From assembly GCA_045629455.1 (NCBI GenBank), contig JAZQRI010000083.1:6536-70535 (forward strand): a stretch of DNA of 64,000 nucleotides. The letters are read 5' to 3'. The notes below the pieces were generated by a model. The model did no database searches, was not told where the DNA came from, and was given only the letters and a program-made list of their open reading frames with translations. The DNA comes from Pedobacter sp. (GTDB lineage Bacteria > Bacteroidota > Bacteroidia > Sphingobacteriales > Sphingobacteriaceae). A program made the position numbers and the translations under genes. Positions 47,431 to 63,198 of this stretch are shown here, one piece after another. Numbering within the stretch: the stretch's first letter is position 1; every line of letters starts with the position of its first letter.

Positions 47431-50400
47431 ATGAAATACGCACTATTCGGATATACCTATCAGCATTATGTCGCCTGCCTTTTGCTCGCCATGATGGATG
47501 TAGAACGTAAAATCCAAAAAATAAGTCTTGAAACAGACGTTAACCACAATTTTGACGACATTAACATATCCTGCGAACACAAAAATTATTGCCTCCAGTT
47601 AAAGGACATCGAAGGCTTAACAACTGATGAAATTACCATAGCAGATGGAAACATAAAAATCAGCGGCAAGAACCATAAGCTATCTTCAGAAGAAAACCTT
47701 TTGTTTTTTAAACAAATTAAACTACGGCCAGACTGCAGGATATTGGGATTACCTGCTCAGCTCAAGGATGGCGTTTATCTAATTTCATTAAACCGAGCGC
47801 AGGTAGAACAGCGTATCTCAAAGCTGTATTATCTAGACAAACATAGAAGACAACTGATCAATAGGTTTCTAAGTGAGCGACTCGACGAACGGAAATTAGA
47901 GATTGACCTGAGAAATATTCCCGCCATTGCGACATTCGATACAAGGTTGACCGACAAGAGTATCCGTGTCGCTAGAAAAATTCTCAATTTTGAACAGATC
48001 CTCCACATCGAAGGAAAACCAGGTGTTGGTAAAAGCCACCTTGTCACTCAGCTCGAGAACCAATTTCACCCAGTGGTACTCTACAGGTTCTGGATTTCCA
48101 ATCAGGACAAAAAATACGAAGAGCGGCTTCGATATACCGAATTTCAGGCGGATGTGATAAAAAAGCTATTTTTTGACCAAAAAGAACGATCAGTTAATGA
48201 TATCTTTTCGGCACTTGAAAAGGACAAGCCAACTTTAATCATCGATGGCCTGGATCATGTCGAAAACTACAGACCACAGGATCTGCGGTCCTATCTAGAT
48301 TTTATAACCCGTGCCTCAGAAAAAACGCGCGTTATCGTACTCAGCCGTCCGCTCCGCACCTCTACGGTTTGGAAAAAACAGGTGCTACGAAACTGGAGCG
48401 GTCCCCAAACTAGAAAAATATTAAAATCATTATACCATCTATCAAGCTATTTGGTTTCAGAACAGATTCACAAACTAACCGAGGGATATCCCATCCTGGT
48501 CAAATACATAGCTGAGCAGTATAAGAAAGAGGGGGTGGTGCCAAGCTTTTCCCAGCTTGACACTGTAAACTCTTACTATGACCAACTTTTCAGCAATGAA
48601 ACTGGCAAACGCGCACTGGCTTTATTCCTATGCACCAGAGGCTTCATTATGCATGAGGAAATTGATCTTTTCCTAGGTGAATACAGCGGAAGCCTGATCA
48701 AGGAATTCCTCGAAGACCGACCTTATTTATTCGAACGAAAACTAAATAGAATATCCCTTTATCATGATAGCCTAGTAACTTACCTTAGAAATAGCGCTCC
48801 GGAATACCAAGTCCTTCAAGGTAAGGTGAATTCAATTGTCAGCCAGTCTATGCTCAAAGGCGAGACCAGATTCCAGTCTAGGATTGGCCATTTCGATCTT
48901 GACAAGAGCTCTGTCTTAAGAATCGTTCGGTATTATTCAAGCATAGCCAACTTCAAAAAATTAATGACGGGCTTATTGGATTTTGAAGCTGTTCGGGAAT
49001 TCTATCCCCAATTGCTTGATTTGCTCGAAAATATCGGCGCATCGCATCTGACCATCAGCCAGTACTATGATCTGGCCCTTATCCTAAATCTTGTCGCTAG
49101 AGACCATTTTTCAACTTTTAATGGCTTCTATTATACCTTCACGAAGGCCATGATAAAATATGGTTATGCCCCAGAATATATAACTTCCAACGGCTATCTA
49201 TTTGCTATGATGATGTACATCAAAACGCAGGATGCCTCGTTGCTATTTAATGTCAAGGCAGACGGCCTTTATGACGTTTCCCGGTTTTATCAGGAACTTG
49301 AGACCGAAATTAAAGAAGAACGTGACTACTTTGAATATCAATCCAAACCCTTCAAAAGGTCTTTGATGGTCAAATCCTTGGCCGATACCCACAATTTAGA
49401 TTATGGAGAAAATCTTGAACATATTCTGGTAAATAACTGCCTCTTTCCGCAACCGGGGCAAAAGTTTGCCAGCCTGAGAGAATCGGTGTCCATTTACCTG
49501 AGCGGGCAGGAAGAACGGGCAGCGATGATACTTTCCATGGAACTCGAAAACAAAAACTGGGATCACTGGCGTTTTGGCTGGCGTCTGGAGAAAGTGAAAT
49601 CTACCCTTTTGGCTCTAGGTGACCAACCGCAGGACAACGATTACCTTAACCTCTCCCTTCGCGATTACCTGAAGCAAAATAGTGAAAAGGGCGCCTTCAA
49701 GCTCTGGCCTGAAATATTGGCCTACATTAGACTATCATTACATAGAAACAGAAAAATGGATCTAGAGTCCATATCGGAATTCTGGACAAAATATCATCAG
49801 CGCCATGACTATTCCCTACGCAGTATTTCTTATATTCTTCGCTCACTTGAGGACCTGGGAGAAATTGACTGGAAAGATTCCCTTGAGCTGATCATGGATA
49901 TCCAAACTAAATCAGAAAAGGGATACAGGGGTCTTACCGCGGAATACTTTGGCCTGCATGATCCAGCCTTCATGGTAAAGGCGATAAAGGAATTTGGTAC
50001 CGGTCAGTTAAAGGTATCCTGGTTCCAGCTCGAGCATGAATACCTGGAGGCGCTTCCAAAATATGTTTACGATATTGAAATGGGCGAACAAATACACTAT
50101 CACCGAACCAATATGCAAATGGATATATCGGTGATAGAAAACTTGTTATCGTCTTCTAAACTGAAATTCCTCAAAAGGGACCTATCCGACTATCGCTATA
50201 CCATCATGATCAAGGACGGAGATCCCAGGGAGGCCATGCTCAAACAACATAAAATTCGATACAAAATTTACGCACAGGAAAAATACAAACTAGAGAGAAG
50301 CCCAGAAGAACGCTTCGACGAAGGATGGTTCGAACCCAGCAATAGGCATCTAGTGCTTGAGAGAGGATTAACCCCATCTGAGGCAGCCCTATTGCTTGAG

Positions 50401-50664
50401 AGCGAAAGTACAGCCATAAAATATCCAGAACTATTTGAAGTTTTTCCTAAGCAACAGGTTAAAGAGCAGATCAAGGAAATCCTTAAAGCCGCTCTAACCG
50501 GCAAATCCAAACATGGGACTTATCGGCAAAGCCCCAGGCTTTTGCCCGGACACCTGATAAAGGTTATTGAAATTGCTGGCCTTACGTCCCAAATACCAAA
50601 ACTTTTGGAAAGCTATAGAACTTTTATGTCGTTGTCCATGTACCAACTTCCTCTAAAAAAATAA
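47431..50664 (+). CDS. NACHT-like STAND NTPase with N-terminal Cap4/DUF4297-like PD-(D/E)xK nuclease domain (Avs/bNACHT-like)
   Basis: N-terminus FGYTYQHYVACLLL...ISLETD...FDDINI...YCLQLKD (GxxYQ plus E/D...QxK pattern). Walker A GKPGVGKSH; Walker B LIIDGLDHVE; VIVLSRP (TSRP-like); about 650-aa helical C-terminus. Confidence 0.7.
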   Translation: MKYALFGYTYQHYVACLLLAMMDVERKIQKISLETDVNHNFDDINISCEHKNYCLQLKDIEGLTTDEITIADGNIKISGKNHKLSSEENLLFFKQIKLRPDCRILGLPAQLKDGVYLISLNRAQVEQRISKLYYLDKHRRQLINRFLSERLDERKLEIDLRNIPAIATFDTRLTDKSIRVARKILNFEQILHIEGKPGVGKSHLVTQLENQFHPVVLYRFWISNQDKKYEERLRYTEFQADVIKKLFFDQKERSVNDIFSALEKDKPTLIIDGLDHVENYRPQDLRSYLDFITRASEKTRVIVLSRPLRTSTVWKKQVLRNWSGPQTRKILKSLYHLSSYLVSEQIHKLTEGYPILVKYIAEQYKKEGVVPSFSQLDTVNSYYDQLFSNETGKRALALFLCTRGFIMHEEIDLFLGEYSGSLIKEFLEDRPYLFERKLNRISLYHDSLVTYLRNSAPEYQVLQGKVNSIVSQSMLKGETRFQSRIGHFDLDKSSVLRIVRYYSSIANFKKLMTGLLDFEAVREFYPQLLDLLENIGASHLTISQYYDLALILNLVARDHFSTFNGFYYTFTKAMIKYGYAPEYITSNGYLFAMMMYIKTQDASLLFNVKADGLYDVSRFYQELETEIKEERDYFEYQSKPFKRSLMVKSLADTHNLDYGENLEHILVNNCLFPQPGQKFASLRESVSIYLSGQEERAAMILSMELENKNWDHWRFGWRLEKVKSTLLALGDQPQDNDYLNLSLRDYLKQNSEKGAFKLWPEILAYIRLSLHRNRKMDLESISEFWTKYHQRHDYSLRSISYILRSLEDLGEIDWKDSLELIMDIQTKSEKGYRGLTAEYFGLHDPAFMVKAIKEFGTGQLKVSWFQLEHEYLEALPKYVYDIEMGEQIHYHRTNMQMDISVIENLLSSSKLKFLKRDLSDYRYTIMIKDGDPREAMLKQHKIRYKIYAQEKYKLERSPEERFDEGWFEPSNRHLVLERGLTPSEAALLLESESTAIKYPELFEVFPKQQVKEQIKEILKAALTGKSKHGTYRQSPRLLPGHLIKVIEIAGLTSQIPKLLESYRTFMSLSMYQLPLKK

Positions 50665-50769: not shown

Positions 50770-53700
50770 ATGAACTGGAACGCATTCAATACCCATAACG
50801 ATAGTTACGAAAATGCATTCGAAGCATTTTCCATACAACTTTTCGAACACTATCTCAGACGCAGCTATCCAGCAGGCTTGAGGGAGTTTTATGCAATTTC
50901 GGGCTCTGGGGGAGATGGCGGCGTGGAGGCATACGGCGTAGTGCCCACCGGGACGATAGGCCTGCAGGCGAAATGGTTCACCACAGCTCTTAGTGCCAAT
51001 CAGATCAAAAACATCAAGGAGTCGATATTAACTGCCAAAAAAATCCGTCCGGAACTAACTGAATATATCATCACTCTTCCCAAAAGGGTGAATTCAAAAA
51101 AAGGTGTTAAGGGGAAAAAGGTGGGAAGCAGCGAACAAGACAGGTTGCAGGAAATGGAAAATGTGGTTCTACAACAGCACCCCACTCTTAAGATTACCTG
51201 GTGGTTTGAGAACCTACTGTTAGAACAGTTGGAATATCCAGATAGTAGATCCATAGAATCCTACTGGTTCGGACGAAATTTTCTTACCCTTGATTTCCTA
51301 AGAAGCAAATTCAGAGACCAAAGGGAACACCAATGGCTCAAAACCAGGTATGCCCCGGATCTAAATGCTGAAGGAGAGATCGCTGCGCACTATGACGAAC
51401 TTTGCCTAGGTCAACATTTCAAATCAGAACTCTCGGATAAGCTACAATCTTTAGGCAATAAACTTGCTTCGGCCTCCAGTCTTATTGATGCCTACATCAA
51501 AGGACAGGATCGTACACCATCGGATGAAGAAACTAACCTGAGCAATCAGCTTAAATGTATAATAATCTGCATTATAGAGTATCAGAACAACATCGAGCTA
51601 CTAGCCACTGCCCTTCAAAAGGGATCGGTGCCCGAACTCCTGGTCCTTCCCGAATACGATCTATGGAAACCAAAAATGGCCGTAGAACGCATAAGGCCCA
51701 CCAATATCCAGATTCCTGTTGCAAAATCATTGGCAAGGGCTTTGGAAAAAATCCATAAGATACATTTGCCACAATACCTCTGCGCATTGAGAGATGAGAT
51801 GAGCAGAAAAATTAAAATATTTTTTGGGTCAGCGGGAACAGGTAAAACCCAAGGACTGGCGCACTGCACCTCCAAACATCTAGACGGAAATCTACCAGCG
51901 ATAATCATTCCGGCCAAAGGAACTCCCTGCGGAAATTGGACGCAAATTCTATCTAGCCAGCTCGAGCTGCCCGAAAGATCTGCTCAAGAGATCTTCACCG
52001 CTTTGGAATCGCTCGCGGTATCTGAACTTAGAAAGGAAGCTGAGCTTAATCGATCGAAAAGAAGCCATTCTGCAACAGTATTAATATCCGTTGATGGGCT
52101 CGAAGAAGATATAAGACATTGGGAAAAATGGTATGATAGGATTAACGATACCCTAGGTATCACCAACACCTTTCCACGAATCAGGTTTATGTTCTCTGCC
52201 AGGGAATATTTCCGCGACAACGACAAAATACCAGAAAGAGTACCATTCGAACAAGTTCAACTGCCGAGCGAGGGAGATATCTCTATAAATGATGCGGCGG
52301 AGATATATTTTTCTCCAATGCATTTCAACATAAGCAACGTAAACTCCGATGTGATGAAGCGTATTGAAAGCCTGTATGCTTTAAAGCTATTCTGCGAGCG
52401 CTACCGCGGAGCAGATCTTCTCTTTACCGAAGATGTACACACCGACCTCCGCTCACTTTTATCGGATAAAATCGCCGCGCTGGAAATTGAGTTTAAAAAT
52501 GGAAGCGGCCGCCGATTCTCCTCCACCTCTGCCCCAGTCGCCGATACTCTCCTCGCAATATCTCAACAATTTTTTACCGAAATAAGCCTTGAACACTCGA
52601 AACTTTTAAGCTTGCTAAACGAGCAAATCCGTTCGCTTTCCTATACGGAATTAGAAGTAATGTTAGAATTTTTATCCGAACGTGGGATATTGACCGCAGG
52701 TATGCACGAGACCATAGGGATAATCAAAAAGAGGGAGATATTTTACTACGTATCCTACCAATCCATCATCGAGCATGTCATTTCCGAAGATATCTTTATC
52801 AAGCTCGTAAATGGCGACATTCAGTCCATTCCCCCAATTGCCCTGAGCGGTATCGCAGCCCCCTTAAGGCTTGGCCATGTTGATATCGAGGCGGCATTTC
52901 CAAACGAGACAATGACCGAGGCGATTTTAAAGCGGGTATTTTTGAGGACGGGTAAACTGGTCGGTCAGGACGGATATTTGGCGACGGGTATGGGCCAGGA
53001 AGAAATTATAGCCATGCAAATGGCGGTGCTAGCTGTGGCGGACAATCTGCATGGCCCGAAATATGAAAATATGGTAAAAAATTGGCTGGCAATGGGGCAC
53101 TGGCACCAACAGCAAGTTTTTATCAGGGTCATTAGGCCGGCCAGCAAAATCGGAGCTTATTTTAATCCGCTATGGCTGCACCAGCATCTTCTGTCTATTC
53201 CAACAGTCTACGAAAGGGACATATTTTTATGGGCGGATAGATCCGTTAGAGCACATGACAACTATGATGGATTTGAAGCGGCAATATATCCTTTCGATGG
53301 TTATGACACCTCTCTCTACCCATTTGACCATTTCGACCAGGAACCATTAATATATGCCTGGTGCCTATCCTCGCCCAGCCGAAACATTCGAAAAGAACTG
53401 CGCTCCTCACTGCTCAACTGGGCAAACCTCAACCTGACCGATTGGATAAATTTACTGGACCTAATGAAGGACCAACAAGATAGCCAGATATTGGAGGACC
53501 TTGCTTCGGTATCTTTGGGTTTATCCTACACCTTAAAAGAAACCAGTGATGTACTGCTGCTATCTAATTGGGTCCTGGCCAATATTTTCGCAAATCCTGA
53601 TACTTATCTGAGCAGTAGGATACGCGAGGGATTCAGAGGAATTATAGACAGAGCGACCGAGCTAGGTGCACTTTCAAAGGAGGATGGAGCTCTAGCTAGG

Positions 53701-55056
53701 CCCAAAAAGCGGAAGGCACAATTACTGCCATTGGCAAAAGATGCTTTGGAAAAAAACAGCGAACAGTTCTTTCCAGTTGTTTCTGATCTTGCATGGTACG
53801 TCCTGGAAGACAGCTACGAGAACTTCTTAGATGAGAGCTATCATGCGGAGGAGGAAGATCAACTAAGCGATCAAATAAAATTCCTAATGCAATATTCTGC
53901 TGTCTACAAACTGGATAGTTTAACTCCTGCGCTATGGGCTCAAGCGGCCGTAATTGCCCAGATCAGAAATAAATTCGGCTATCTCGAAAAAAGCGGAAAT
54001 GTTGTTTTTCTGCCTTCTCATGGGGAAAAAGGCCTGATTATGTACTTTGCGGAGAAATATATCTGGCAGGCGGTCTACTCTGTACAGGGCTACTTATCGG
54101 AACAGCTGCCACTTATCGAACAGGAACGCTATATTAAGTCCTACCGTGAAATCGTAAATGTTTCAAATCCTGCTGAGGGGCTGATGCACAATGGAGATCT
54201 GTTATCTTCCCTCGACGATATTCCAGGGCCTGGATGGCTTATTCCTGAAAACCTAGTAAATTCGGTAACCATTGAACCAAAATTAATCAAAAAGGGTATA
54301 GATAAGGAGATTGATGAGCCAGATGGGCTTAACCTACATTTATGGTTAGAATACAGTGATAAATCAGCGAAGATATGGAGACAGCTGTTTAGCCAAACTA
54401 CTTTGGAGGACAAAAACCAGGTGGTCTATGGCAGGGTCACGGCAAATGCGGCTCTAATGCCGCCAGATGCGTTCCAACGATTTCTCAACATTTTACGTAC
54501 TTCTCCCGAGGACCTACACTTTTTAAGCAGCCTAGACACCCTGCTTGCCACACCGTCGGGCAGCTTTTATCAGAACCCAATCGACATAGTGGATGGAAAG
54601 GATATTGGCGAAGATAAACCAGATACATTACTAGAGATCGATGGGGAGGAATCCAACCTATACCACTCCATCGTTAAGGTCGTGCAATCAGAGAACAATA
54701 ATGAAAAGACCTACCATCTTCCCTCCAGAATCGTACGAGAACTTCTGGGAATAAAGCAACTAAAAGGGAAAAGACTAAAGGATTATATGGGCGAGACGAT
54801 TGGCTTTGTCACTGAAATGGGCAGACCGGGCGAAGAGAATTCTCAGCGATTGACCTTCGTCACGGCAGACATCCTTGACGTGGGATTAGCGGACACCGGC
54901 TATCAACTATTATGGTTCGTGGAGGTCTTTAAAAGAACTACACTCACTACAGAAAAGGATGGCCTATTTCTACGCAGGACACGGAAGTATTTAGTCTGGA
55001 TGGAAGATAATTTATACAAACAGCATAAGTTCTGGGACGGAGAGTCATCCAATTAA
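50770..55056 (+). CDS. Giant (1428 aa) P-loop STAND-like NTPase with N-terminal Mrr-type restriction-endonuclease-like domain
   Basis: FEAFSIQLFE...SGSGGDGGVEAYG...IGLQAKWF (Mrr_cat-like D...E.K pattern). Walker A FFGSAGTGKTQ; Walker B VLISVDGLEED; about 950-aa C-terminal region with no motif I recognise. Confidence 0.65.
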   Translation: MNWNAFNTHNDSYENAFEAFSIQLFEHYLRRSYPAGLREFYAISGSGGDGGVEAYGVVPTGTIGLQAKWFTTALSANQIKNIKESILTAKKIRPELTEYIITLPKRVNSKKGVKGKKVGSSEQDRLQEMENVVLQQHPTLKITWWFENLLLEQLEYPDSRSIESYWFGRNFLTLDFLRSKFRDQREHQWLKTRYAPDLNAEGEIAAHYDELCLGQHFKSELSDKLQSLGNKLASASSLIDAYIKGQDRTPSDEETNLSNQLKCIIICIIEYQNNIELLATALQKGSVPELLVLPEYDLWKPKMAVERIRPTNIQIPVAKSLARALEKIHKIHLPQYLCALRDEMSRKIKIFFGSAGTGKTQGLAHCTSKHLDGNLPAIIIPAKGTPCGNWTQILSSQLELPERSAQEIFTALESLAVSELRKEAELNRSKRSHSATVLISVDGLEEDIRHWEKWYDRINDTLGITNTFPRIRFMFSAREYFRDNDKIPERVPFEQVQLPSEGDISINDAAEIYFSPMHFNISNVNSDVMKRIESLYALKLFCERYRGADLLFTEDVHTDLRSLLSDKIAALEIEFKNGSGRRFSSTSAPVADTLLAISQQFFTEISLEHSKLLSLLNEQIRSLSYTELEVMLEFLSERGILTAGMHETIGIIKKREIFYYVSYQSIIEHVISEDIFIKLVNGDIQSIPPIALSGIAAPLRLGHVDIEAAFPNETMTEAILKRVFLRTGKLVGQDGYLATGMGQEEIIAMQMAVLAVADNLHGPKYENMVKNWLAMGHWHQQQVFIRVIRPASKIGAYFNPLWLHQHLLSIPTVYERDIFLWADRSVRAHDNYDGFEAAIYPFDGYDTSLYPFDHFDQEPLIYAWCLSSPSRNIRKELRSSLLNWANLNLTDWINLLDLMKDQQDSQILEDLASVSLGLSYTLKETSDVLLLSNWVLANIFANPDTYLSSRIREGFRGIIDRATELGALSKEDGALARPKKRKAQLLPLAKDALEKNSEQFFPVVSDLAWYVLEDSYENFLDESYHAEEEDQLSDQIKFLMQYSAVYKLDSLTPALWAQAAVIAQIRNKFGYLEKSGNVVFLPSHGEKGLIMYFAEKYIWQAVYSVQGYLSEQLPLIEQERYIKSYREIVNVSNPAEGLMHNGDLLSSLDDIPGPGWLIPENLVNSVTIEPKLIKKGIDKEIDEPDGLNLHLWLEYSDKSAKIWRQLFSQTTLEDKNQVVYGRVTANAALMPPDAFQRFLNILRTSPEDLHFLSSLDTLLATPSGSFYQNPIDIVDGKDIGEDKPDTLLEIDGEESNLYHSIVKVVQSENNNEKTYHLPSRIVRELLGIKQLKGKRLKDYMGETIGFVTEMGRPGEENSQRLTFVTADILDVGLADTGYQLLWFVEVFKRTTLTTEKDGLFLRRTRKYLVWMEDNLYKQHKFWDGESSN

Positions 55057-55141: not shown

Positions 55142-56602
55142 TTATTCCTGTTTTAAAAAATAATCCTGCATGATGTCATTGAATTTTTTGGATTTAGCCA
55201 ACCCAGAAGTGTGCATAATCTTCTTAGGATCAAAGAAGTCAACTTTATATTTTTTTGTAGCTTCCATTGTTTCGATTAACGTTCTCGAATCGTCACTAAA
55301 TCCGCCCGTCGACCAATATTGAAAATGGATTTCTTTATCATTGAGCGAAGGTTGGTCCAATATCCATTTTCTGATCACAGCAATTTTTTCATTTCTCCAG
55401 ATTTCTATATCAGCCTTTATAATCGGGTAATTATAACCTTTACATTCTGCAACTACCACTTTATTTCCATAGACTGCATAAACATCCATCTCTCTTTGAA
55501 GATGTTCATGGCTGATCAACTTGCCAATATCCAGTGTTCCACATCCCATCTTGGAATGATAATAGCCAACCGCCATTTCAAAAAGGTCCCCACGCAAATT
55601 GTTTGTCTTTCCGCTAACAAGCGATTTAAGCTTTTTTATCAGGTCAAGAAACTGCTCTGGATTTTTTTTCAAGATGGCTCCCGCGTTAACTACTGAATTG
55701 ACCAGTGCTTTCATTAATGCCAAATACTCATCTCCGAACAATTGGTTCACAAATCCGACGATTATCCCATTGCTCTTTAGATAACTGAGCGCCTCAGGAT
55801 CCACGGAATCTACTATCAAGAAAGGCAGAAATTGTGGCGTGTTTTTTTGGGCCTTCAGTATATCCACTTTCTTAATAAAAAACTCTACCTGATCAGGAGT
55901 AATGTTATTATTAACCAAAATATCCGCCACCACATACCCGGGGGCAATTTTTTCATCTTTCCAGCGCGTAAGTGTACTCACATAAGACGGCGCTACGAAT
56001 GCAAAGCAAAAATTTCCGAAAGGAGAGTAAAAACTTGACGCATCATAACTAGTTAAGGCCATTTTCCGTGCCCAATCATTAAACTGGATCAACAATGTAT
56101 CCTTTACCAATTGAATACCCATACTAAGCCTCTGATTTGAAATAACCTGGCTTCTGCTTTCATTCAATGAAATATTTTCATCTATGTAACGATTTAAAAG
56201 CTCAAGAGATTTCAACTTCTCGATTGCCGAGTCAAACGTTAGGTGCCCTTTTACATTGCTGATAGGATTTACAGAATAAGCAGCTAGCTGCTCCGAGGGG
56301 AGAGACCCTCGATGAAACTCAAGCGCATTTAGGATATAATTGTATTGTTTGGCGTCAGATTTAATCGCCGCTCTTAAACCTTCCGAGAATTCAACCGAAT
56401 TGTAATCATCTTTTATGTAAAAAAGCGTCTGGCGGTTTGCGAAATAACCTGTCAACCGAAAGATGTTCTCATCCTTGGTTCTGGAAATTTGCTGACGTAG
56501 GGCGTCGTCACTTTGCATCCACCCGGCCAGTCGGAGTTCTTTGATGATCTGACCGGTTAAAATGGGGCCCTTAGATCTAATGATTTTTTTTATCGATGTC
56601 AC
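55142..56602 (-). CDS. Hypothetical protein: N-terminal wHTH-like segment plus C-terminal PD-(D/E)xK nuclease-fold
   Basis: C-terminus LRGDLFEMAVGYYH...REMDVYAV...VVVAECKGY (FE...D...E.K restriction-endonuclease-like pattern). GTG start at 56602. Convergent with the 1428-aa gene. Confidence 0.5.
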   Translation of the reverse strand: MTSIKKIIRSKGPILTGQIIKELRLAGWMQSDDALRQQISRTKDENIFRLTGYFANRQTLFYIKDDYNSVEFSEGLRAAIKSDAKQYNYILNALEFHRGSLPSEQLAAYSVNPISNVKGHLTFDSAIEKLKSLELLNRYIDENISLNESRSQVISNQRLSMGIQLVKDTLLIQFNDWARKMALTSYDASSFYSPFGNFCFAFVAPSYVSTLTRWKDEKIAPGYVVADILVNNNITPDQVEFFIKKVDILKAQKNTPQFLPFLIVDSVDPEALSYLKSNGIIVGFVNQLFGDEYLALMKALVNSVVNAGAILKKNPEQFLDLIKKLKSLVSGKTNNLRGDLFEMAVGYYHSKMGCGTLDIGKLISHEHLQREMDVYAVYGNKVVVAECKGYNYPIIKADIEIWRNEKIAVIRKWILDQPSLNDKEIHFQYWSTGGFSDDSRTLIETMEATKKYKVDFFDPKKIMHTSGLAKSKKFNDIMQDYFLKQE

Positions 56603-56898
56603 ACCACACTATTTATATTAAATTACTAATTAGTACTGTCGTGGTTTTTTTGAAAAACTGCGTTCGCTATTACCGCAAGACTGTTTTTAGTGATATTTAC
56701 GTGCGTTGACAGCATATTATCTAACCCGCACATTCTGCAAATTACAAAAAACAGGTCTTAAATCGATGATTCTTTCTCGAGCGTTAAATAAAATTAGTAT
56801 CGTCAGAAGGAGCCGCATTGACTATACTAATTAAACCTAGTTACTATAACCCAGTTAGAGTTAACAAAACAATTGATTATCTTGGCTAAAACTTTAAA

Positions 56899-57468
56899 AT
56901 GGACTTATCTTGTATCAATGATATTCTTCACGTGCAGATTCCATCCTTGCTACGCCAGGAAATGATCTCTGACTGGTACCGATCAGAAGCAGGAAAGATT
57001 GCAAGGGTCCTGACCGTGACAGACAAAAAATATTCATTAGCACTCAATACACCGTATAGCGACAAGCTGAAATACTTTGATCTGAATATATCAAATTGCG
57101 TCCATCAGTATTTTAACGAATTCAGCGATAGATTCTGGACCTCGCAGAATACCGATCACAAAAAGTTTTTAGTAGACAAGTATCTAAACCGAGAAGTGGT
57201 CCAGAAAATCCAGGATACCGCTCATGTTATCATTAGCAAAAATCTTCAATGGGAAAACCACAATAAGCCAGAACAACTGAAAAATAGAGAAGTAATTTTT
57301 ATTCTTCAATCCTTAAAGTTCAATCTGATATGGCTATACCTGGAGATAAAAAAATTAGTTGAGCATGCCGTTAATGATGGATATCAGACTCTCGAAACAT
57401 TGCTTGCAGAGCATTTTCACGAATACGACTGCTCATCGCCACATATAAAGGAAAACCAAGAATTTTAA
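56899..57468 (+). CDS. Hypothetical 189-aa protein, first gene of the pAgo operon
   Basis: ATG start; ends 14 nt before the next gene. No TM segment or motif recognised. Confidence 0.5.
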   Translation: MDLSCINDILHVQIPSLLRQEMISDWYRSEAGKIARVLTVTDKKYSLALNTPYSDKLKYFDLNISNCVHQYFNEFSDRFWTSQNTDHKKFLVDKYLNREVVQKIQDTAHVIISKNLQWENHNKPEQLKNREVIFILQSLKFNLIWLYLEIKKLVEHAVNDGYQTLETLLAEHFHEYDCSSPHIKENQEF

Positions 57469-57482
57469 CCTAATTTTAATGC

Positions 57483-58703
57483 ATGGTTAAAATATTTCGG
57501 CTCTTAGTAATTATCCTAGCAATAATTACTGTATTTATAACGATCATCTTCTTAGTTATTGTATGGAAGAACTTCACCTTCATAGGTTCAGGCGCTGTAT
57601 CTTGGGAGCACACCTCGCAAGTCTCAGACTTTTTCGGAGGGGTCATCGGCACATTTTTATCCGCCATGGGTTTTATCCTAATATATTTGAGTTTCAACTC
57701 GCAGACAGAGAGCCAAAATGACCAGAAAAATCAGTTTCTTCAATCCCAGATCGAAACTCGCTTCATCGAACTGATCAAGATCCATAAGGAAACCGTTGCC
57801 AATCTCACCTATGACAGAGAGATAACCTTACAGGGGCAAAAAGTGATTGATTTTATTGTGGGGCAGTTTGAATCATCTTTTGTTGAAGTAGCGGCATTTT
57901 TCACCAGCCTTGAGTCTGAACAATGCTACAAACCAACAGTATTACAAACGATCAACGGAATTTTATCCCTGCGAACAATTAGCCCTATTCTTTTAGCCCA
58001 AATAGATATTGCTTATTCCATTGTATTTTTTGGAATGGCCAAAGATGATATTGAATCCCTGAGGCACTTACTTAAAAGGCATTACAATGATGATCTGATC
58101 GATGAAATACTTGAGTTTATCAAGCTAAAATCACTCGGCAAAGAAAACCTGTCTAAATGGAAGATCATTTTAGAAAGCGGCCTCACTAGGGAAAATATCA
58201 ACTCGACCATAGCGGAATATCGCCAAAACGGCACCATTGCAAGAAGGCAATTCGATGCAGCGTATCAGGACGCCTTTGAAACGCTACTGAAAAAGGAGTC
58301 ATCGGATAAATACTATGGGGGACATCAATATAAGTTAGGCCATTATTTCAGGCACCTATTTCTGACCGTGAAATACATCAACGACCAATCAATCATTGGT
58401 TATAAGGATAAATATAACTACATAAAAATACTAAGGGCCCAAATTTCTACAATTGAACAGTATCTGATATTCTATAATTCACTTTCATTTATGGGTAGGG
58501 CCTGGGAACTGGAGCATGTCAACACGACCAGTGATGAAGCTATCAAAAATAAATGGCTTTTTACAAAATACAATTTCATTAAAAATACACCTAATCTGTC
58601 TCAACTTGGCGTAATAAAACTGGACGAATTCTATCCAGACCTGCAGTTCGAGTTCACCGGACAACCTGAAAAAAGAGCCGAACTAGGCCAGTTATTCAAA
58701 TAA
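57483..58703 (+). CDS. Two-TM membrane protein resembling the putative phage abortive infection (AbiC-like) family; candidate pAgo effector
   Basis: Hydrophobic helices at aa 5-28 and about 48-71 (SDFFGGVIGTFLSAMGFILIYLSF), a Q-rich linker, FIELIKIHKE, and later GHYFRHLFLTVKYI. It lies 27 nt upstream of the pAgo gene. Confidence 0.6.
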   Translation: MVKIFRLLVIILAIITVFITIIFLVIVWKNFTFIGSGAVSWEHTSQVSDFFGGVIGTFLSAMGFILIYLSFNSQTESQNDQKNQFLQSQIETRFIELIKIHKETVANLTYDREITLQGQKVIDFIVGQFESSFVEVAAFFTSLESEQCYKPTVLQTINGILSLRTISPILLAQIDIAYSIVFFGMAKDDIESLRHLLKRHYNDDLIDEILEFIKLKSLGKENLSKWKIILESGLTRENINSTIAEYRQNGTIARRQFDAAYQDAFETLLKKESSDKYYGGHQYKLGHYFRHLFLTVKYINDQSIIGYKDKYNYIKILRAQISTIEQYLIFYNSLSFMGRAWELEHVNTTSDEAIKNKWLFTKYNFIKNTPNLSQLGVIKLDEFYPDLQFEFTGQPEKRAELGQLFK

Positions 58704-58730
58704 AATTTCAAATTAACACCTCAAATACCA

Positions 58731-60755
58731 ATGGATTTTTCAACCAATATCATTCCCTTTCGATTACCTATACAACTACAGCCATTCTACTTCTCCTTGG
58801 ACGAAAGTAGTCAAGCTCACAGATTACATCGAAATGTAATCTCGGATAAGATAGCAACTGTGCTACAGTTAGATCCGGAAATAGAATTTGTCTACACCAC
58901 CTTTGACATCGAATGCGTTGGCTACACTTTGATTGAGCTAGACCTCGCTCAAGAAAAACCTTCATTTGCCAAGAGATATTATAATTACTTAATCCAAAAA
59001 TATTTCCAGGATCTGGGCATTCTGGTGAAAAAAAACTTTGTACGGGACGTTCAAATTTGGATACTTCAACAAGCACCCTCTGAATATACCACTTTTGACC
59101 GTTTTACAATTCGTACTCAATTTAATAAGATCACTACCAGCGGCGAATTGCTGATTGCATTTGATGGAGTCTCGAAGGTATTGAAGAAAACAGTAAATGA
59201 GGCCACGGAAATCCAACCAGAAAATCTGCGGTATGTGCTTCAAGAGAATAAACTACTCCGGTATCATGATCCGGAGGATTATCAGCTTGTGGATTACAAT
59301 CTATCTTATCCGGTTATGGGTCTGAATATCTATAGAGATTTAAATCTTCCCCTGCCCGTTTTGGATAAAACCAACAAATACAAAAAGTTTATCCCCAAGA
59401 TTTCCAGTTTCGTTAAAAAATATCTAGATCAGGACGGCTTTCGGTCATTAGTAAACCTTTCACAAAAAACTTTTTATAAGCTTCCAGATACATTAATCGG
59501 AACCGTTAAGCAAGAAAGCAACAACTTGCTCTTTGGAAACAATCATGTAGATTCCGACGCGCGACAGGGAATCAAAAAAGGCCCATATAAAAAAACACCC
59601 TACACAAACGTCCATTTCTTTTTTATATATCACAAGGATTCAACTCTTTCAGCAAAGACGCTCCATACCTATTACAAAGAGGGTATCGAATTTTTTAAAG
59701 GCCTCGAAAGTATCGCTAAAGTTAGATACCATACAGAAAAAAATTTCAGTATCGTTTTTGATAATTTAGCCGATCCAATTGCTGAAATCCAAGAGGCTCT
59801 TGATTCGAAGGACTGGAAGCCTGACGTGGAATATTTCGCCATTTACATTAGCCCATTTGACAAACATGAACCCGATAGGCAAAAGCGCCAGCTTTATTTT
59901 AGCCTGAAAAAACTGTTGCTTGAAAAAAAGATCCATTCTCAGGTCATTGTCGAGAATAAAATGCTGGAAAAGGGTGCAGAGTATAAATACAGCATGATCA
60001 ATATTGCCGTAGCTGCACTGGCTAAACTGGGAGGTGTCCCCTGGAGAATTCAATCTTCACTCAAGAACGAACTGGTCGTTGGAGTTGGCGCTTTCAAAAG
60101 TCCGGATACCGGCCTGCATTATGTCGGAAGCGCATTCTCCTTCCAGAATAATGGGGAATTCAACGAATTCGATTGCTTTCTGAAAACGGACACGGATATT
60201 TTAGCGGGAGCAATCCAGGAGGCAATTATCAAGTTCACATCTGTAAACAAGAATCCACAGCGCCTCATAATCCATTTTTACAAGGACATGAGCTATAAAG
60301 AAATCAAACCAATATTGACAAAACTTTATAATCTAGGCCTAGCTATTCCGGTTTTTATCATAACCATCAATAAGACCGAATCTAGTGACATTATCGCTTG
60401 GGACAATGACTGGAATGGGCTGATGCCTACCAGTGGAACCTATATTAGGGTTGGAAAAAATGAATATTTATTATTCAACAATACTCGATATGGTCAAGGT
60501 CATAAAGCGTCGGACGGTTTTCCTTTTCCAGTTAAAATGAAGGTCAGCTGCACGGACGCTGAGCAATTAAGTCCACTTATCGTAAGGGAATTGATTGACC
60601 AAGTCTATCAATTCAGCAAGATGTATTGGAAATCAGTCAAGCAGCAACACCTACCTGTGACGATAAAATATCCAGAAATGGTAGCTGAGATCTTCCCGCA
60701 TCTAGGGGTACTTACCTTGCCAGAGTTTGGGAAGGACAAACTTTGGTTTCTCTAG
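58731..60755 (+). CDS. Prokaryotic Argonaute (MID-PIWI), catalytically inactive, shortened N-lobe (long-B-like)
   Basis: MID pocket pattern Y389/K393/Q404/K432 (LYFSLKK..IHSQ..INIAVAALAKLGGVPW). PIWI strands VVGVGAF, RLIIHFYKD and PVTIKYPEMVAE lack acidic residues at the DEDX positions. Confidence 0.8.
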   Translation: MDFSTNIIPFRLPIQLQPFYFSLDESSQAHRLHRNVISDKIATVLQLDPEIEFVYTTFDIECVGYTLIELDLAQEKPSFAKRYYNYLIQKYFQDLGILVKKNFVRDVQIWILQQAPSEYTTFDRFTIRTQFNKITTSGELLIAFDGVSKVLKKTVNEATEIQPENLRYVLQENKLLRYHDPEDYQLVDYNLSYPVMGLNIYRDLNLPLPVLDKTNKYKKFIPKISSFVKKYLDQDGFRSLVNLSQKTFYKLPDTLIGTVKQESNNLLFGNNHVDSDARQGIKKGPYKKTPYTNVHFFFIYHKDSTLSAKTLHTYYKEGIEFFKGLESIAKVRYHTEKNFSIVFDNLADPIAEIQEALDSKDWKPDVEYFAIYISPFDKHEPDRQKRQLYFSLKKLLLEKKIHSQVIVENKMLEKGAEYKYSMINIAVAALAKLGGVPWRIQSSLKNELVVGVGAFKSPDTGLHYVGSAFSFQNNGEFNEFDCFLKTDTDILAGAIQEAIIKFTSVNKNPQRLIIHFYKDMSYKEIKPILTKLYNLGLAIPVFIITINKTESSDIIAWDNDWNGLMPTSGTYIRVGKNEYLLFNNTRYGQGHKASDGFPFPVKMKVSCTDAEQLSPLIVRELIDQVYQFSKMYWKSVKQQHLPVTIKYPEMVAEIFPHLGVLTLPEFGKDKLWFL

Positions 60756-60800
60756 GGAGAGATAATTCTTTCCGTTACTTTTAAAGCAATTTTTCGAATA

Positions 60801-60917
60801 TTAACAGATTGGAGTAGCCATTGTATCCAAAAAATCATAATTTTTCACAGCTTTTTCAAGTTGCTTAAGCTGGATGAATTCCGCTCTGCTAACTTTTTGT
60901 CCATTGTAATAACACAT
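60801..60917 (-). pseudogene. 38-codon remnant resembling the N-terminus of an SOS-response-associated peptidase (SRAP/YedK-like)
   Basis: MCYYNGQKVSRAEFIQLKQLEKAVKNYDFLDTMATPIC*: Met-Cys start as in SRAP (catalytic Cys2) with a Bacteroidota-style MCYY opening. It ends about 45 nt from the pAgo stop, whereas full-length SRAPs are about 200 aa or more. Confidence 0.4.
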
Positions 60918-60921
60918 AATC

Positions 60922-61170
60922 TTATCTCCTTTTAGCACGGATATGCTCAGCAATCAATTTCCCAATTTGTTCGGCTTCGATCTGTCTTCCCTATGGTATG
61001 GAAGTCCAGAATTTCTGGTCACGCAGGCCAATGCCTATCGCAATTAACAGCGGCTTTTTTCAGCCTTTGAAATCAACATGAAACACCCTGTTGGACCCGA
61101 CCTCATGTTCTGCGACAGTAATCTGTTGTCCTTCCAGTTCTAGCTCAAATGGTGGTTCAAGTTCCCTCAT
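60922..61170 (-). pseudogene. Stop-interrupted paralogue of the 99-aa ORF at 8969-9268
   Basis: MRELEPPFELELEGQQITVAEHEV...FHVDFKG*KKPLLIAIGIGLRDQKFWTSIP*GRQIEAEQIGKLIAEHI. This compares with MEPFNIKLPVSGQTATLTILPAEE...KDWTLVPEEE...RSIGAEIQS. Two in-frame stops. Confidence 0.5.
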
Positions 61171-61923
61171 TATTAAAATTAAAGAAAAATCTAAGAATCA
61201 AAAAGGGTCAAACACCTAAAGATTAGGCACAAAGAAAAACGGGGAATAATCATGATGACGATTCCCCGTTCTAAATTAACGCTCTCATACATAAAGACGC
61301 TGGTAGAGCAGATTTATTGCAAACGCAACTTAATTTTTTTCTCGATTTCTTTCCGCTGAGTCGAGCCGTCCTTTTTAGCATCCTTGACGGCGGCAGATTT
61401 CACGGTCAATTTATCTGCTTCGTATTGATCTCATGTGGTTGGTTGGAAACCGAATTCCTTCAACTTTGCTTCCTCTTGGTATAATCTTAATTTCTAGGTG
61501 AATGATGCCATCAAAACAACATTAAATCAGGATGGTTTAAAAAATCTGCCGCCTAAAAGCACGTGGGAAAGATGGCCTTTTTAAATGAGAACGCTTTATA
61601 ACCTCTATCTTGACCTACCGCTGGAGATGTTTTGCAGATTATTATCTTCTGCGGCTTTAATGTTAGGGTGCTCAACATCCTAGACTGATGGCCTTACATA
61701 CTGGTCTTGTTTTAACCCAGCTTCCCTTAGAATATTTCGGGAATGTTGGTACTTAGAATAATGTTACCATCCTTAAGGTCCGGTAATATCTTGTTGACAA
61801 TCGCGTCTCTAATTATAGTTATAGCATTTGAATGGGCGAGCACTGTCAAAAGGAACCGAAAAGGACAGTGTAATAAATGAATCCCCAGCTATGGTGATTT
61901 CAAAATGATATTAATGATTTTCC

Positions 61924-61962
61924 ATAAATAGTCAAGTTTAATAGAAAAACTTGACTATTTAT
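61924..61962. repeat. Perfect 16-bp inverted repeat (ataaatagtcaagttt / aaacttgactatttat), 7-nt loop
   Basis: Read directly. It is immediately followed by a second hairpin, agagtagaagat-tctaa-gtcttccactct (61963-61991). Confidence 0.85.
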
Positions 61963-62411
61963 AGAGTAGAAGATTCTAAGTCTTCCACTCTATCTTACCA
62001 TTTATTGGATACAATAGCCGTTCTCGAATTCCAGAAGCAACCCAATATTTAATTTATAACCAAAGAATTCTGCTCCGTTACATATTTGTTACTGTTCTTA
62101 ATAAAAAAACAGACGAGCTCATGAACTGACATTGTTCCTGTTAGAATTATTGATTTGCCTATTCCTATACCAATCTGTAAAAGTTCGAACTCCGCTTTGA
62201 TATCCTTTACCTTTTGGAATTATGCCTCGTATGCCCGTTTAACTCTGGCGATACCGACTTCCCTCCCGTAATCAGGGAATGTAACCATCTAATACCATCC
62301 TACCTTTGAGACCGAGTGATACCCATCGGGTGCATCTAAATCTACAAGCATGGAGAGGATGGGACAACCTTGTAGCATTTTTTTTTCTCCACTACCTCCT
62401 CCTTAGCTTCT

Positions 62412-62444
62412 CCTTACCTTTCCTATACCTTTGCCTTACCTTTT
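62412..62444 (+). repeat. Three 11-nt phased TACCTTT / CCTTACC units upstream of the 62554 gene
   Basis: ccttacctttc-ctatacctttg-ccttacctttt. The middle unit TACCTTTG fits the Bacteroidota -7 promoter consensus TAnnTTTG. Same core motif as at 9334-9399. Confidence 0.6.
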
Positions 62445-62553
62445 GGTAGCCGAAAGCTAGGGCGGAGCCTTGCAAAAAGTGCCGCATCTACAAACTTGAT
62501 TTATCGCTGTATTTTGTTTAAGTTTAATCTAGTAAACACTAACGCATCTCGAA

Positions 62554-63198
62554 ATGGCAACAATTAAAAAAGGAATATTGGGTCCGGTTACGGGCTCGAT
62601 AGGAAAAGTGATCGGCTATGAACGACTAGGTACGCCCTGCATCAGAATTAAAGCGGAACCGAAAGAACAAAACTTTACGTCCAAACAAAGGGCGCACCAG
62701 TTGCGCGTCAGGCTGGCCAACAGTTTCATCAACCCTTCAAAGGCCTTCATCAACATTGGTTTTTCTTTAAGCACCACTGGCGGCCAGACCGCGCACAACG
62801 TAGCTATGGCGCATGCCATAAGAAATGGCACCAAAGGTGAGTTCCCGGAACTAGAACTGGATTTTGAAAACCTGCTGGTTTCGGATGGGGAACTTCCAGG
62901 AGCGGTGAATCCGCAGGTAGAACTGTCAATCAATTCGAATCTGAAATTCTCCTGGGATTACGACAATAGCCTGGAGTTTGCCCTAAGAAAGGATCAGGTC
63001 ATGCTCCTCGCCTATTCGCCGGAAACAAACAGATCCTTCTACACCATTGGTGGCGCAAAAAGATCTGCGGGTCAGGATATCTTAGAATTGTACACCGAGC
63101 TTCAGCCCGAAGTATTTGAGACCTATATCGCTTTCATTTCAGAAGACCGGAAATTGATATCCAGAAGTACCTACACAGGAAAGGTTATCATAAGCTAA
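62554..63198 (+). CDS. Hypothetical protein, DUF6266-like
   Basis: The N-terminus MATIKKGILGPVTGSIGKVIGYERLG resembles my recollection of Bacteroidota DUF6266 proteins. No functional motif. Confidence 0.45.
   Translation: MATIKKGILGPVTGSIGKVIGYERLGTPCIRIKAEPKEQNFTSKQRAHQLRVRLANSFINPSKAFINIGFSLSTTGGQTAHNVAMAHAIRNGTKGEFPELELDFENLLVSDGELPGAVNPQVELSINSNLKFSWDYDNSLEFALRKDQVMLLAYSPETNRSFYTIGGAKRSAGQDILELYTELQPEVFETYIAFISEDRKLISRSTYTGKVIIS

Follow-up and report, generated by a model that had tools for sequence, protein, structure and literature searches.

Can a catalytically inactive prokaryotic Argonaute (pAgo) and the two genes in front of it be read as one defence system, in which a guided sensor signals to a membrane protein? 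The question is raised by a 64,000-nucleotide stretch of Pedobacter sp. DNA (assembly GCA_045629455.1, contig JAZQRI010000083.1, positions 6,536 to 70,535; the whole stretch is called the window here), which holds a 3.9-kb cassette of three genes on the plus strand, referred to below as A, B and C and together as the trio (Table 1). A sequence-only reading of the window had singled these genes out as a possible undescribed defence system, made up of a first protein that resembled nothing, an AbiC-like membrane protein and a dead Argonaute. Comparison with related loci indicates that the trio is inherited as one unbroken cassette in a small Bacteroidota clade while its surroundings turn over. 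It also places the first and the last gene in families that belong to a published type of integrative element, and it makes cooperation between the three products the reading that is favoured here, tentatively.

The cassette and its neighbours across genomes

Homologues of A, B and C are present in the same order on other contigs, and the trio is intact in at least six genomic contexts: the window itself, L081/L082 and L083 (where the pAgo is 71% and 70% identical to that of the window), L084 (75%), L085/L086 (56%) and L100. The gaps between the genes measure 5-40 nt across these loci, and the flanking genes are different at each. By tblastx, positions 56876-60785 are the sole part of the window common to the other trio loci. 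L083 and L100 are 96% identical over 4425 bp, with similarity ending exactly at the pAgo stop codon and unrelated flanks. Both upstream genes are retained in the trio clade down to 56% pAgo identity, nothing having been inserted or lost inside the trio, and in trees of the pAgo and of B the trio is in each case monophyletic, with congruent branching order. Once pAgo identity has dropped to about 50%, the trio is no longer present and its place is taken by the cargo typical of this pAgo family.

How unusual is this stability? The wider pAgo family was sampled at 80 genomic loci (L001-L080), which were fetched, their open reading frames (ORFs) called and their neighbours clustered; counts of neighbour turnover cover 76 relatives. 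At 70-80% identity only 11 of 132 pAgo pairs (8%) have an upstream gene family in common, at 50-60% identity 29 of 793, and among pairs of 90-99.5% identity only 14 of 62. Set against such replacement of the flanks, the persistence of the trio is difficult to account for unless selection acts to keep the three genes linked.

The cassette shared by L083 (5603-10026) and L100 (3307-7728) is 4.4 kb long and consists of a 550-bp non-coding leader plus the trio, in two unrelated contexts. Terminator-like hairpins that belong to the adjacent genes immediately precede its left edge, and neither end has a recognisable terminal repeat or tRNA fragment. The leader is not conserved at the other trio loci.

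The genes themselves appear to be maintained. The ratio of nonsynonymous to synonymous substitution (dN/dS) is 0.12 for A, 0.07 for B and 0.06 for C, values that come from the one pair of loci for which they are computable, dS being saturated in every other pair; dN increases in parallel across the three genes between loci. All three ORFs are intact at every trio locus, and many residues are invariant despite identities of 30-57% for A and 56-75% for C. The same-order homologues and the low dN/dS together argue that these are real genes and no chance ORFs and, by the substitution pattern, all three are under purifying selection. The sequence-only reading had their coordinates, strand and gaps (14 nt between A and B, 27 nt between B and C) exactly right, and it had rightly called the region AT-rich: the trio lies inside the longest low-GC run of the window (55-62 kb, GC 0.37-0.40, against 0.42-0.50 over most of the remainder). 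A scan for promoters of the sigma-70 type and for terminators gave matches no commoner than in shuffled sequence, Bacteroidota promoters being outside the scope of that scan.

Table 1. Features of the trio and its vicinity, in window coordinates
Feature	Position	Strand	Length	Description
STAND/AAA-type NTPase	47431-50664	+	1077 aa	NPHP3_N, AAA_22, weak nSTAND3
Avs2-like protein	50770-55056	+	1428 aa	PADLOC Avs2 E 3e-51; NCBIfam Avs2 far below cut-off
486-aa protein	55142-56602	-	486 aa	Divergent from the trio, in the same low-GC block; weak PADLOC match to CARF_PDDEXK at residues 316-392
Intergenic region	56603-56898		296 bp	Presumed promoter region of the trio, placed by gene layout only; shared with the divergent 486-aa gene
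Gene A	56899-57468	+	189 aa	ORF matched, through profiles, to the DUF6617 N-terminal domain only; candidate adaptor or regulator
Gene B	57483-58703	+	406 aa	putAbiC (AbiC/AbiP-family) membrane protein; candidate effector
Gene C	58731-60755	+	674 aa	Catalytically inactive long-B pAgo; candidate guide-dependent sensor
DUF6266 gene	62554-63198	+	214 aa	Pfam DUF6266 E 2e-31; context, outside the trio

The Argonaute, gene A and their parent elements

What kind of Argonaute does C encode? The protein matches the Pfam Piwi profile (E 3e-15, which exceeds the gathering score) and, from end to end, a PADLOC pAgo model (E 2e-245). Its best sequence matches in the PDB are AfAgo (E 1e-12), EcAgo (E 1e-8) and RsAgo (E 2e-8), followed more weakly by the long-A CtAgo (E 5e-6); judged from these matches, the closest sequence relatives of C are long-B members. 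An AlphaFold2 (AF2) model, with a mean predicted local distance difference test (pLDDT) of 78, aligns over its full length to RsAgo and to PIWI-clade and long Argonautes (Foldseek E ~1e-23, TM-score ~0.6, ~760-800 columns), and the region around residues ~150-215 is short, which fits a reduced PAZ domain. As modelled, C is a full-length long-B pAgo with reduced PAZ and not a short pAgo.

Its catalytic positions were mapped by HMMER alignment to EcAgo, combined with the published tetrad positions of that protein. Opposite EcAgo G492, E532, Q568 and D700, C has G453, K485, Y517 (or D519) and E649. In an alignment to the active CpAgo the first catalytic Asp stands opposite a gap beside G453/A454, and the Asp of the CpAgo RDG motif aligns to D519, a position that is Thr in most family members. 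Since at least two tetrad residues are absent, C should not cleave; with its DEDX catalytic tetrad lost, it should be nuclease-dead. A human Ago2 fragment was tried as PIWI reference with BLASTP and hhalign, and its alignments were too weak to be used; EcAgo and CpAgo served instead. In the MID domain, Y389, K393, Q404 and K432 align to AfAgo Y123, K127, Q137 and K163, the residues of its 5'-phosphate pocket. All four are invariant in the family, and the pocket of C is, by this alignment, intact. A C-terminal LWFL is also invariant in the pAgo family of C. An Argonaute at this position, its dead active site and its PAZ-poor build had all been anticipated by the sequence-only reading.

The same reading could not assign the combination of genes to any characterised system, and as regards the pAgo it needs correcting. 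A protein search returned 679 relatives (as protein clusters), all from Bacteroidota wherever the source names the organism, and viral contigs yielded one relative only, which argues that the family is not phage-borne. Relatives at 41-51% identity to C lie downstream of BT4734-like_N and PriCT_2-DUF3987 genes, in elements with a recurrent order: a tyrosine integrase, a gene for a protein of 338-341 aa (family c5), two HTH_17 excisionase-like genes, a BT4734-like primase, PriCT_2-DUF3987, an XRE regulator, variable defence cargo, the pAgo, further variable cargo, DUF6943 and DUF6266. The cargo upstream of the pAgo is mostly defensive (type I/III restriction-modification, RhuM, ImmA/PIN, DUF5655/NucS-like, McrBC, MmeI and others), and that downstream includes DUF262 and often Fur/AraC-type regulators with CusA-type efflux pumps. 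Across L001-L080 the pAgo marks a constant border that separates two cargo hotspots. Fu et al. (2025) named the primase of these elements AgaPP and the helicase AgaPH, and described the integrase, AgaPP, AgaPH and the long-B pAgo as conserved and the remaining genes as variable (PMC11724360). The AgaPP-associated pAgos correspond to the og_54 (VirE-N) subclade of Song et al. (2023; PMC10620215). In a neighbour-joining tree the trio clade is nested among AgaPP-associated relatives, and by this placement C belongs to the described og_54 subclade of AgaPP-associated long-B pAgos.

Gene A had been reported to match nothing, and direct searches of Pfam (E up to 0.1), NCBIfam and PADLOC indeed find no match. 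Its affinity emerges by profile methods only. The A family aligns with the c5 family in hhalign (probability 99%, E 2e-18; residues 2-186 of A on 4-193 of c5), and c5 in turn matches Pfam DUF6617 (PF20322) in 23 of its 26 members (lowest E 9e-39). An exhaustive search with the A-family profile found 87 representative relatives, mostly of 330-345 aa, which match at their N-terminus; shorter forms of DUF6617, of 184-220 aa, were also among them. A spans about half of the DUF6617 family model. On these profile matches A appears to be the N-terminal domain of DUF6617 and not an orphan. Its closest full-length relative sits in the gene order integrase-c5-HTH_17-HTH_17-AgaPP-AgaPH-GmrSD. The AF2 model of A is a confident all-helical bundle (pLDDT 88.6), for which a structure search against the PDB gave no neighbour with E <0.9 and no recognisable DNA-binding or recombinase fold. 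The idea that DUF6617 might be an RteC-like regulator was dropped: none of 26 members scanned against Pfam matched RteC, even at E up to 1, and a PDB profile search came back empty.

The gene of ~340 aa that carries full-length DUF6617 always lies between the integrase and the two HTH_17 genes, at all 13 informative loci (L009, L012, L015, L016, L028, L034, L036, L044, L045, L049, L060, L071 and L075) plus L094 and L097. As far as these loci tell, DUF6617 belongs to the constant backbone of the AgaPP/AgaPH/pAgo integrative elements. Fu et al. do not name it as a conserved component (PMC11724360), and a literature search found no paper that mentions it.

Measured against these elements (PMC11724360; PMC10620215), the trio looks like a reduced relic or offshoot. 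C falls in the same pAgo family, A is by its profile matches homologous to a backbone gene, and the window shares with 14 related loci a DUF6266 gene on the downstream side of the pAgo. The differences are equally plain. AgaPP, AgaPH, the Xis-like HTH_17 genes and a parent-type integrase are missing from the window and the other trio loci; tblastn and hidden Markov model searches of the window with the integrase, AgaPP and AgaPH families found nothing. The parent elements have a tRNA gene at their far end and none adjoins the trio, ARAGORN finding no tRNA in the window. Of DUF6617 the N-terminal domain alone is left, and a putAbiC gene, B, is fixed beside the pAgo where elsewhere cargo turns over. 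The integrase, excision and replication genes have disappeared, the pAgo and the N-terminal half of DUF6617 are what is left of the backbone, and one former cargo gene, putAbiC, has become fixed between them.

Could such a relic be mere debris? A decaying remnant with no current function would account for the loss of the parent's integrase, AgaPP, AgaPH and tRNA from the window, for the half-length DUF6617 that A represents, and for the 1.8 kb downstream of the pAgo, in which there is no ORF of more than 55 aa. However, the three ORFs are intact at every locus, dN/dS stays at 0.06-0.12 and many residues of A and C are invariant across the identities given above; the purifying selection suggested by these figures brings the remnant reading close to refutation and makes it extremely improbable.

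The conserved block could also be a unit of transfer. In that case the trio would be a mobilisable mini-element, with A as a mobility or regulatory factor, kept from the parent element, through which resident integrases could move or control the cassette in trans, and with B and the pAgo as cargo. The constant place of DUF6617 between the integrase and the HTH_17 genes of the parent elements agrees with this, as do the sharp cassette boundaries with their unrelated flanks and the arrangement at L085, where a tyrosine integrase lies 0.8 kb upstream of A and a serine recombinase is near. But that integrase belongs to another subfamily than that of the parent element, most trio loci, the window included, have no integrase nearby, the cassette ends revealed neither terminal repeats nor att-like sites nor tRNA genes, and A lacks a recognisable DNA-binding or recombinase fold. 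On balance a mini-element is improbable.

The membrane protein and its possible coupling to the Argonaute

The product of B matches Pfam putAbiC (PF16872) over residues 281-342 (E 1e-14, 55 bits against a cut-off of 22) and the PADLOC models for AbiC (E 1e-7) and AbiP (E 2e-6). Its hydropathy profile gives two transmembrane (TM) helices at about residues 5-27 and 50-72 (Kyte-Doolittle windows >1.6, starting at residues 1-21 and 49-54), followed by ~330 soluble residues, so that the earlier description of the middle gene as AbiC-like with two N-terminal TM helices holds. The positive-inside rule, applied to K3 and R6 at the N-terminus, would make the C-terminal domain of ~330 aa cytoplasmic. 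The family of B is a large one in Bacteroidota (314 homologues, mostly of 390-440 aa, many thus sharing its length), several members of which are labelled 'putative phage abortive infection protein' by their sources. A putAbiC domain above the gathering score and two N-terminal TM helices, as described for AbiC, liken it to the AbiC/AbiP group; typical members of that group are stand-alone single genes, whereas B has a DUF6617-N gene fixed on one side and a pAgo on the other. AbiP is reported to need its TM segment, for the Abi phenotype, and its nucleic-acid-binding domain (PMC13064643).

Do the three proteins act together? The reading favoured here is that they form a sensor-to-membrane-effector defence, a proposal that stops a little short of being probable. 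Small guides with a 5' phosphate, probably RNA guides like those of RsAgo and EcAgo, would be loaded by the pAgo, and the loaded protein would bind complementary invader DNA without cutting it. The cytoplasmic domain of B would receive the signal of target binding from the pAgo itself or by way of A, which would then resemble the Aga1 adaptor of the SiAgo system. B would in turn compromise the membrane or another essential process, and the invaded cell would stop growing or die (abortive infection), and the plasmid or phage would disappear from the population.

Several lines of evidence favour this scheme. The trio is exceptionally stable against the fast turnover of cargo, and the reduced cassette has kept no more of the backbone than the pAgo and the N-terminal half of DUF6617. 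Inactive pAgos generally act through separate killing effectors, as in BPAN, BPAS and BPAM (PMC10620215) and likewise in EcBPAN and SiAgo-Aga1-Aga2. The congruent trees and parallel dN, the lost catalytic residues, intact pocket and long-Argonaute fold of C, and the putAbiC domain and two TM helices of B count in the same direction, as does the location of the trio in a defence island, beside an Avs2-like gene and a STAND NTPase.

Other findings weigh against cooperation. B is collinear with the stand-alone members of its family and has no extra domain specific to the trio, and stand-alone putAbiC genes at 46-48% identity to it occur in defence islands with no pAgo nearby and form the sister group of the trio B proteins in a neighbour-joining tree. 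Lactococcal AbiC and AbiP, moreover, are single-gene systems (PMC13064643). Given this sister group and these single-gene precedents, B need not depend on the pAgo. In the parent elements the homologue of A stands 5-12 kb from the pAgo, beside the integrase, a place no less suggestive of a function in the biology of the element than of a partnership with the pAgo. No gene is a fixed neighbour of the pAgo in the parent family; at 8 or 9 of its loci the pAgo comes directly after the element backbone and only metal-resistance regulators lie downstream. With no toxic effector adjacent, this type of pAgo is evidently able to work without one. In the view of Fu et al., who left the function of the AgaPP-associated pAgos open, abortive infection is 'less likely' for them (PMC11724360). 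The sequence-only reading had made co-localisation of the three genes in other genomes a test of its proposal. Within the subclade the outcome supports it, the trio recurring in its several contexts; in the wider family a putAbiC gene lies within 6 kb of the pAgo at none of the 80 loci.

These observations suit a rival account, in which the three are independent co-residents of a compact defence mini-island that is selected and transferred as a block. B would be a self-contained protein of the AbiC/AbiP type, A a regulator or the bearer of a separate, element-derived role, and the pAgo, free of any effector, would interfere with plasmids or competing mobile elements through RsAgo-like guide-directed binding, possibly with the help of recruited host nucleases. 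A further point in its favour comes from L089, where a putAbiC gene stands upstream of the pAgo without A. This gene groups with the stand-alone putAbiC genes and not with those of the trio, and it is absent from the close relative L095; together these facts show an independent capture, and they mark the slot upstream of the pAgo as a cargo hotspot. (At L089, 3523-6898, the putAbiC gene lies between a DUF87/FtsK-like ATPase gene and the pAgo; at L095, 4213-7880, the ATPase gene directly abuts the pAgo.) Against independence stands the contrast described at the outset: cargo beside this pAgo family is otherwise quickly replaced, with 8% retained at 70-80% pAgo identity, and even two loci that are 96% identical differ in the sequence just outside the trio, yet nothing has entered or left the trio down to 56% pAgo identity. 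Independent residence is a serious possibility, though a somewhat doubtful one.

A bolder version of the cooperative scheme concerns gene A. The N-terminal domain of DUF6617 may be the missing dedicated adaptor of the 'orphan' AgaPP-associated pAgos, relaying target recognition to an effector that in the parent elements would be the C-terminal half of DUF6617 or the element machinery, and that in the trio would have been replaced by an AbiC/AbiP-type protein. Such a minimal chain of sensor, adaptor and membrane effector would have evolved independently of SiAgo-Aga1-Aga2 and of BPAM. This is unlikely as matters stand; if true, it would supply the first defined activating input for an AbiC/AbiP-family protein.

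The defence island and the known systems

In the window, housekeeping genes end at ~46.3 kb and are followed by the STAND NTPase, the Avs2-like gene, the 486-aa gene on the minus strand, the trio, a 1.8-kb gap, the DUF6266 gene and a GH43-type gene. By gene content, the trio is within a defence island of ~16 kb, which housekeeping genes at ~46.3 kb and 63.2 kb bound. The 486-aa protein has no match in Pfam or NCBIfam, and its gene was not found beside the trio at any other locus; an 'AECK' motif in it resembles the core of PD-(D/E)XK nucleases. In the gap 3' of the pAgo (60756-62553), short minus-strand ORF fragments look like a decayed gene, at a place where related elements hold variable cargo and DUF6943. 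An Rfam scan of the trio region and of this gap was empty. The DUF6266 gene is absent from the other trio loci. In the wider family, where it lies downstream of the pAgo in 14 of the 80 loci, it is usually preceded by DUF6943, and at L097 (13292-13933) it comes directly before the integrase of a second, tandem element. DUF6266 appears, from these positions, to mark the right end of these integrative elements.

Is the system, if it is one, new? The kinds of component (a long-B pAgo, an AbiC/AbiP-family protein and a DUF) and the parent element are already known. In a literature search the fixed combination of the three, the link to DUF6617 and the contrast with cargo turnover were not found, and the text and supplements of Ryazansky (2018) make no mention of putAbiC. 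The earlier suggestion of an undescribed defence system is best divided accordingly: the fixed trio was not met in the literature searched, but the pAgo family and its parent elements had been described (PMC11724360). An undescribed pAgo-to-membrane-effector system is a plausible and reasonable hypothesis.

The locus matters beyond that hypothesis. The AgaPP-associated long-B pAgos are a large Bacteroidota family, and the trio is the smallest self-contained version of such a pAgo with candidate partners, one that is easy to clone. AbiC/AbiP-type proteins are widespread, and a version locked to a sensor could reveal their route of activation. DUF6617, for its part, is the sole backbone gene kept beside the pAgo once the rest of the element is lost. 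Even if the three do not cooperate, the trio would be a clean example of a defence mini-island carved from a mobile element.

Among characterised systems, the nearest functional analogy is BPAM of Elizabethkingia anophelis, likewise a Bacteroidota host, in which an inactive long-B pAgo is paired with a membrane protein and killing occurs only when the pAgo and the full-length TM protein, bAgaM, are both present (PMC10620215). The resemblance does not extend to the sequences or the layout. BLASTP of B against EabAgaM gave a best E of 0.72 over 16 residues, and A against EabAgaM an E of 0.32, neither amounting to similarity. bAgaM is encoded downstream of its pAgo and has a C-terminal TM segment, whereas B lies upstream and has its TM helices at the N-terminus; BPAM has two genes and no DUF6617-like third; and its pAgo belongs to subclade og_100, that of the trio to og_54. 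Membership of the trio in BPAM was rejected after the direct comparison with EabAgaM and in view of the opposite gene order and TM position. The second comparison is with SiAgo-Aga1-Aga2 of Sulfolobus islandicus, which also unites an Argonaute, a soluble partner and a membrane effector, and in which target-bound Ago-Aga1 licenses binding to the TM effector Aga2. SiAgo is short and archaeal and receives its APAZ-like half from Aga1, whereas C is full length; A is modelled as a helical bundle with no significant PDB neighbour; and the effector here is an AbiC/AbiP-family protein. The earlier verdict that the trio is neither BPAM nor SiAgo-Aga1-Aga2 is upheld on all these counts. If A, B and C do cooperate, they would represent a new variation on the theme of an inactive pAgo plus a killing effector, in which the effector is not related to those of BPAM and SiAgo and the third component has a new origin. 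Long-B pAgo systems would then gain a fourth, unrelated class of effector, and three-component Argonaute systems a second example.

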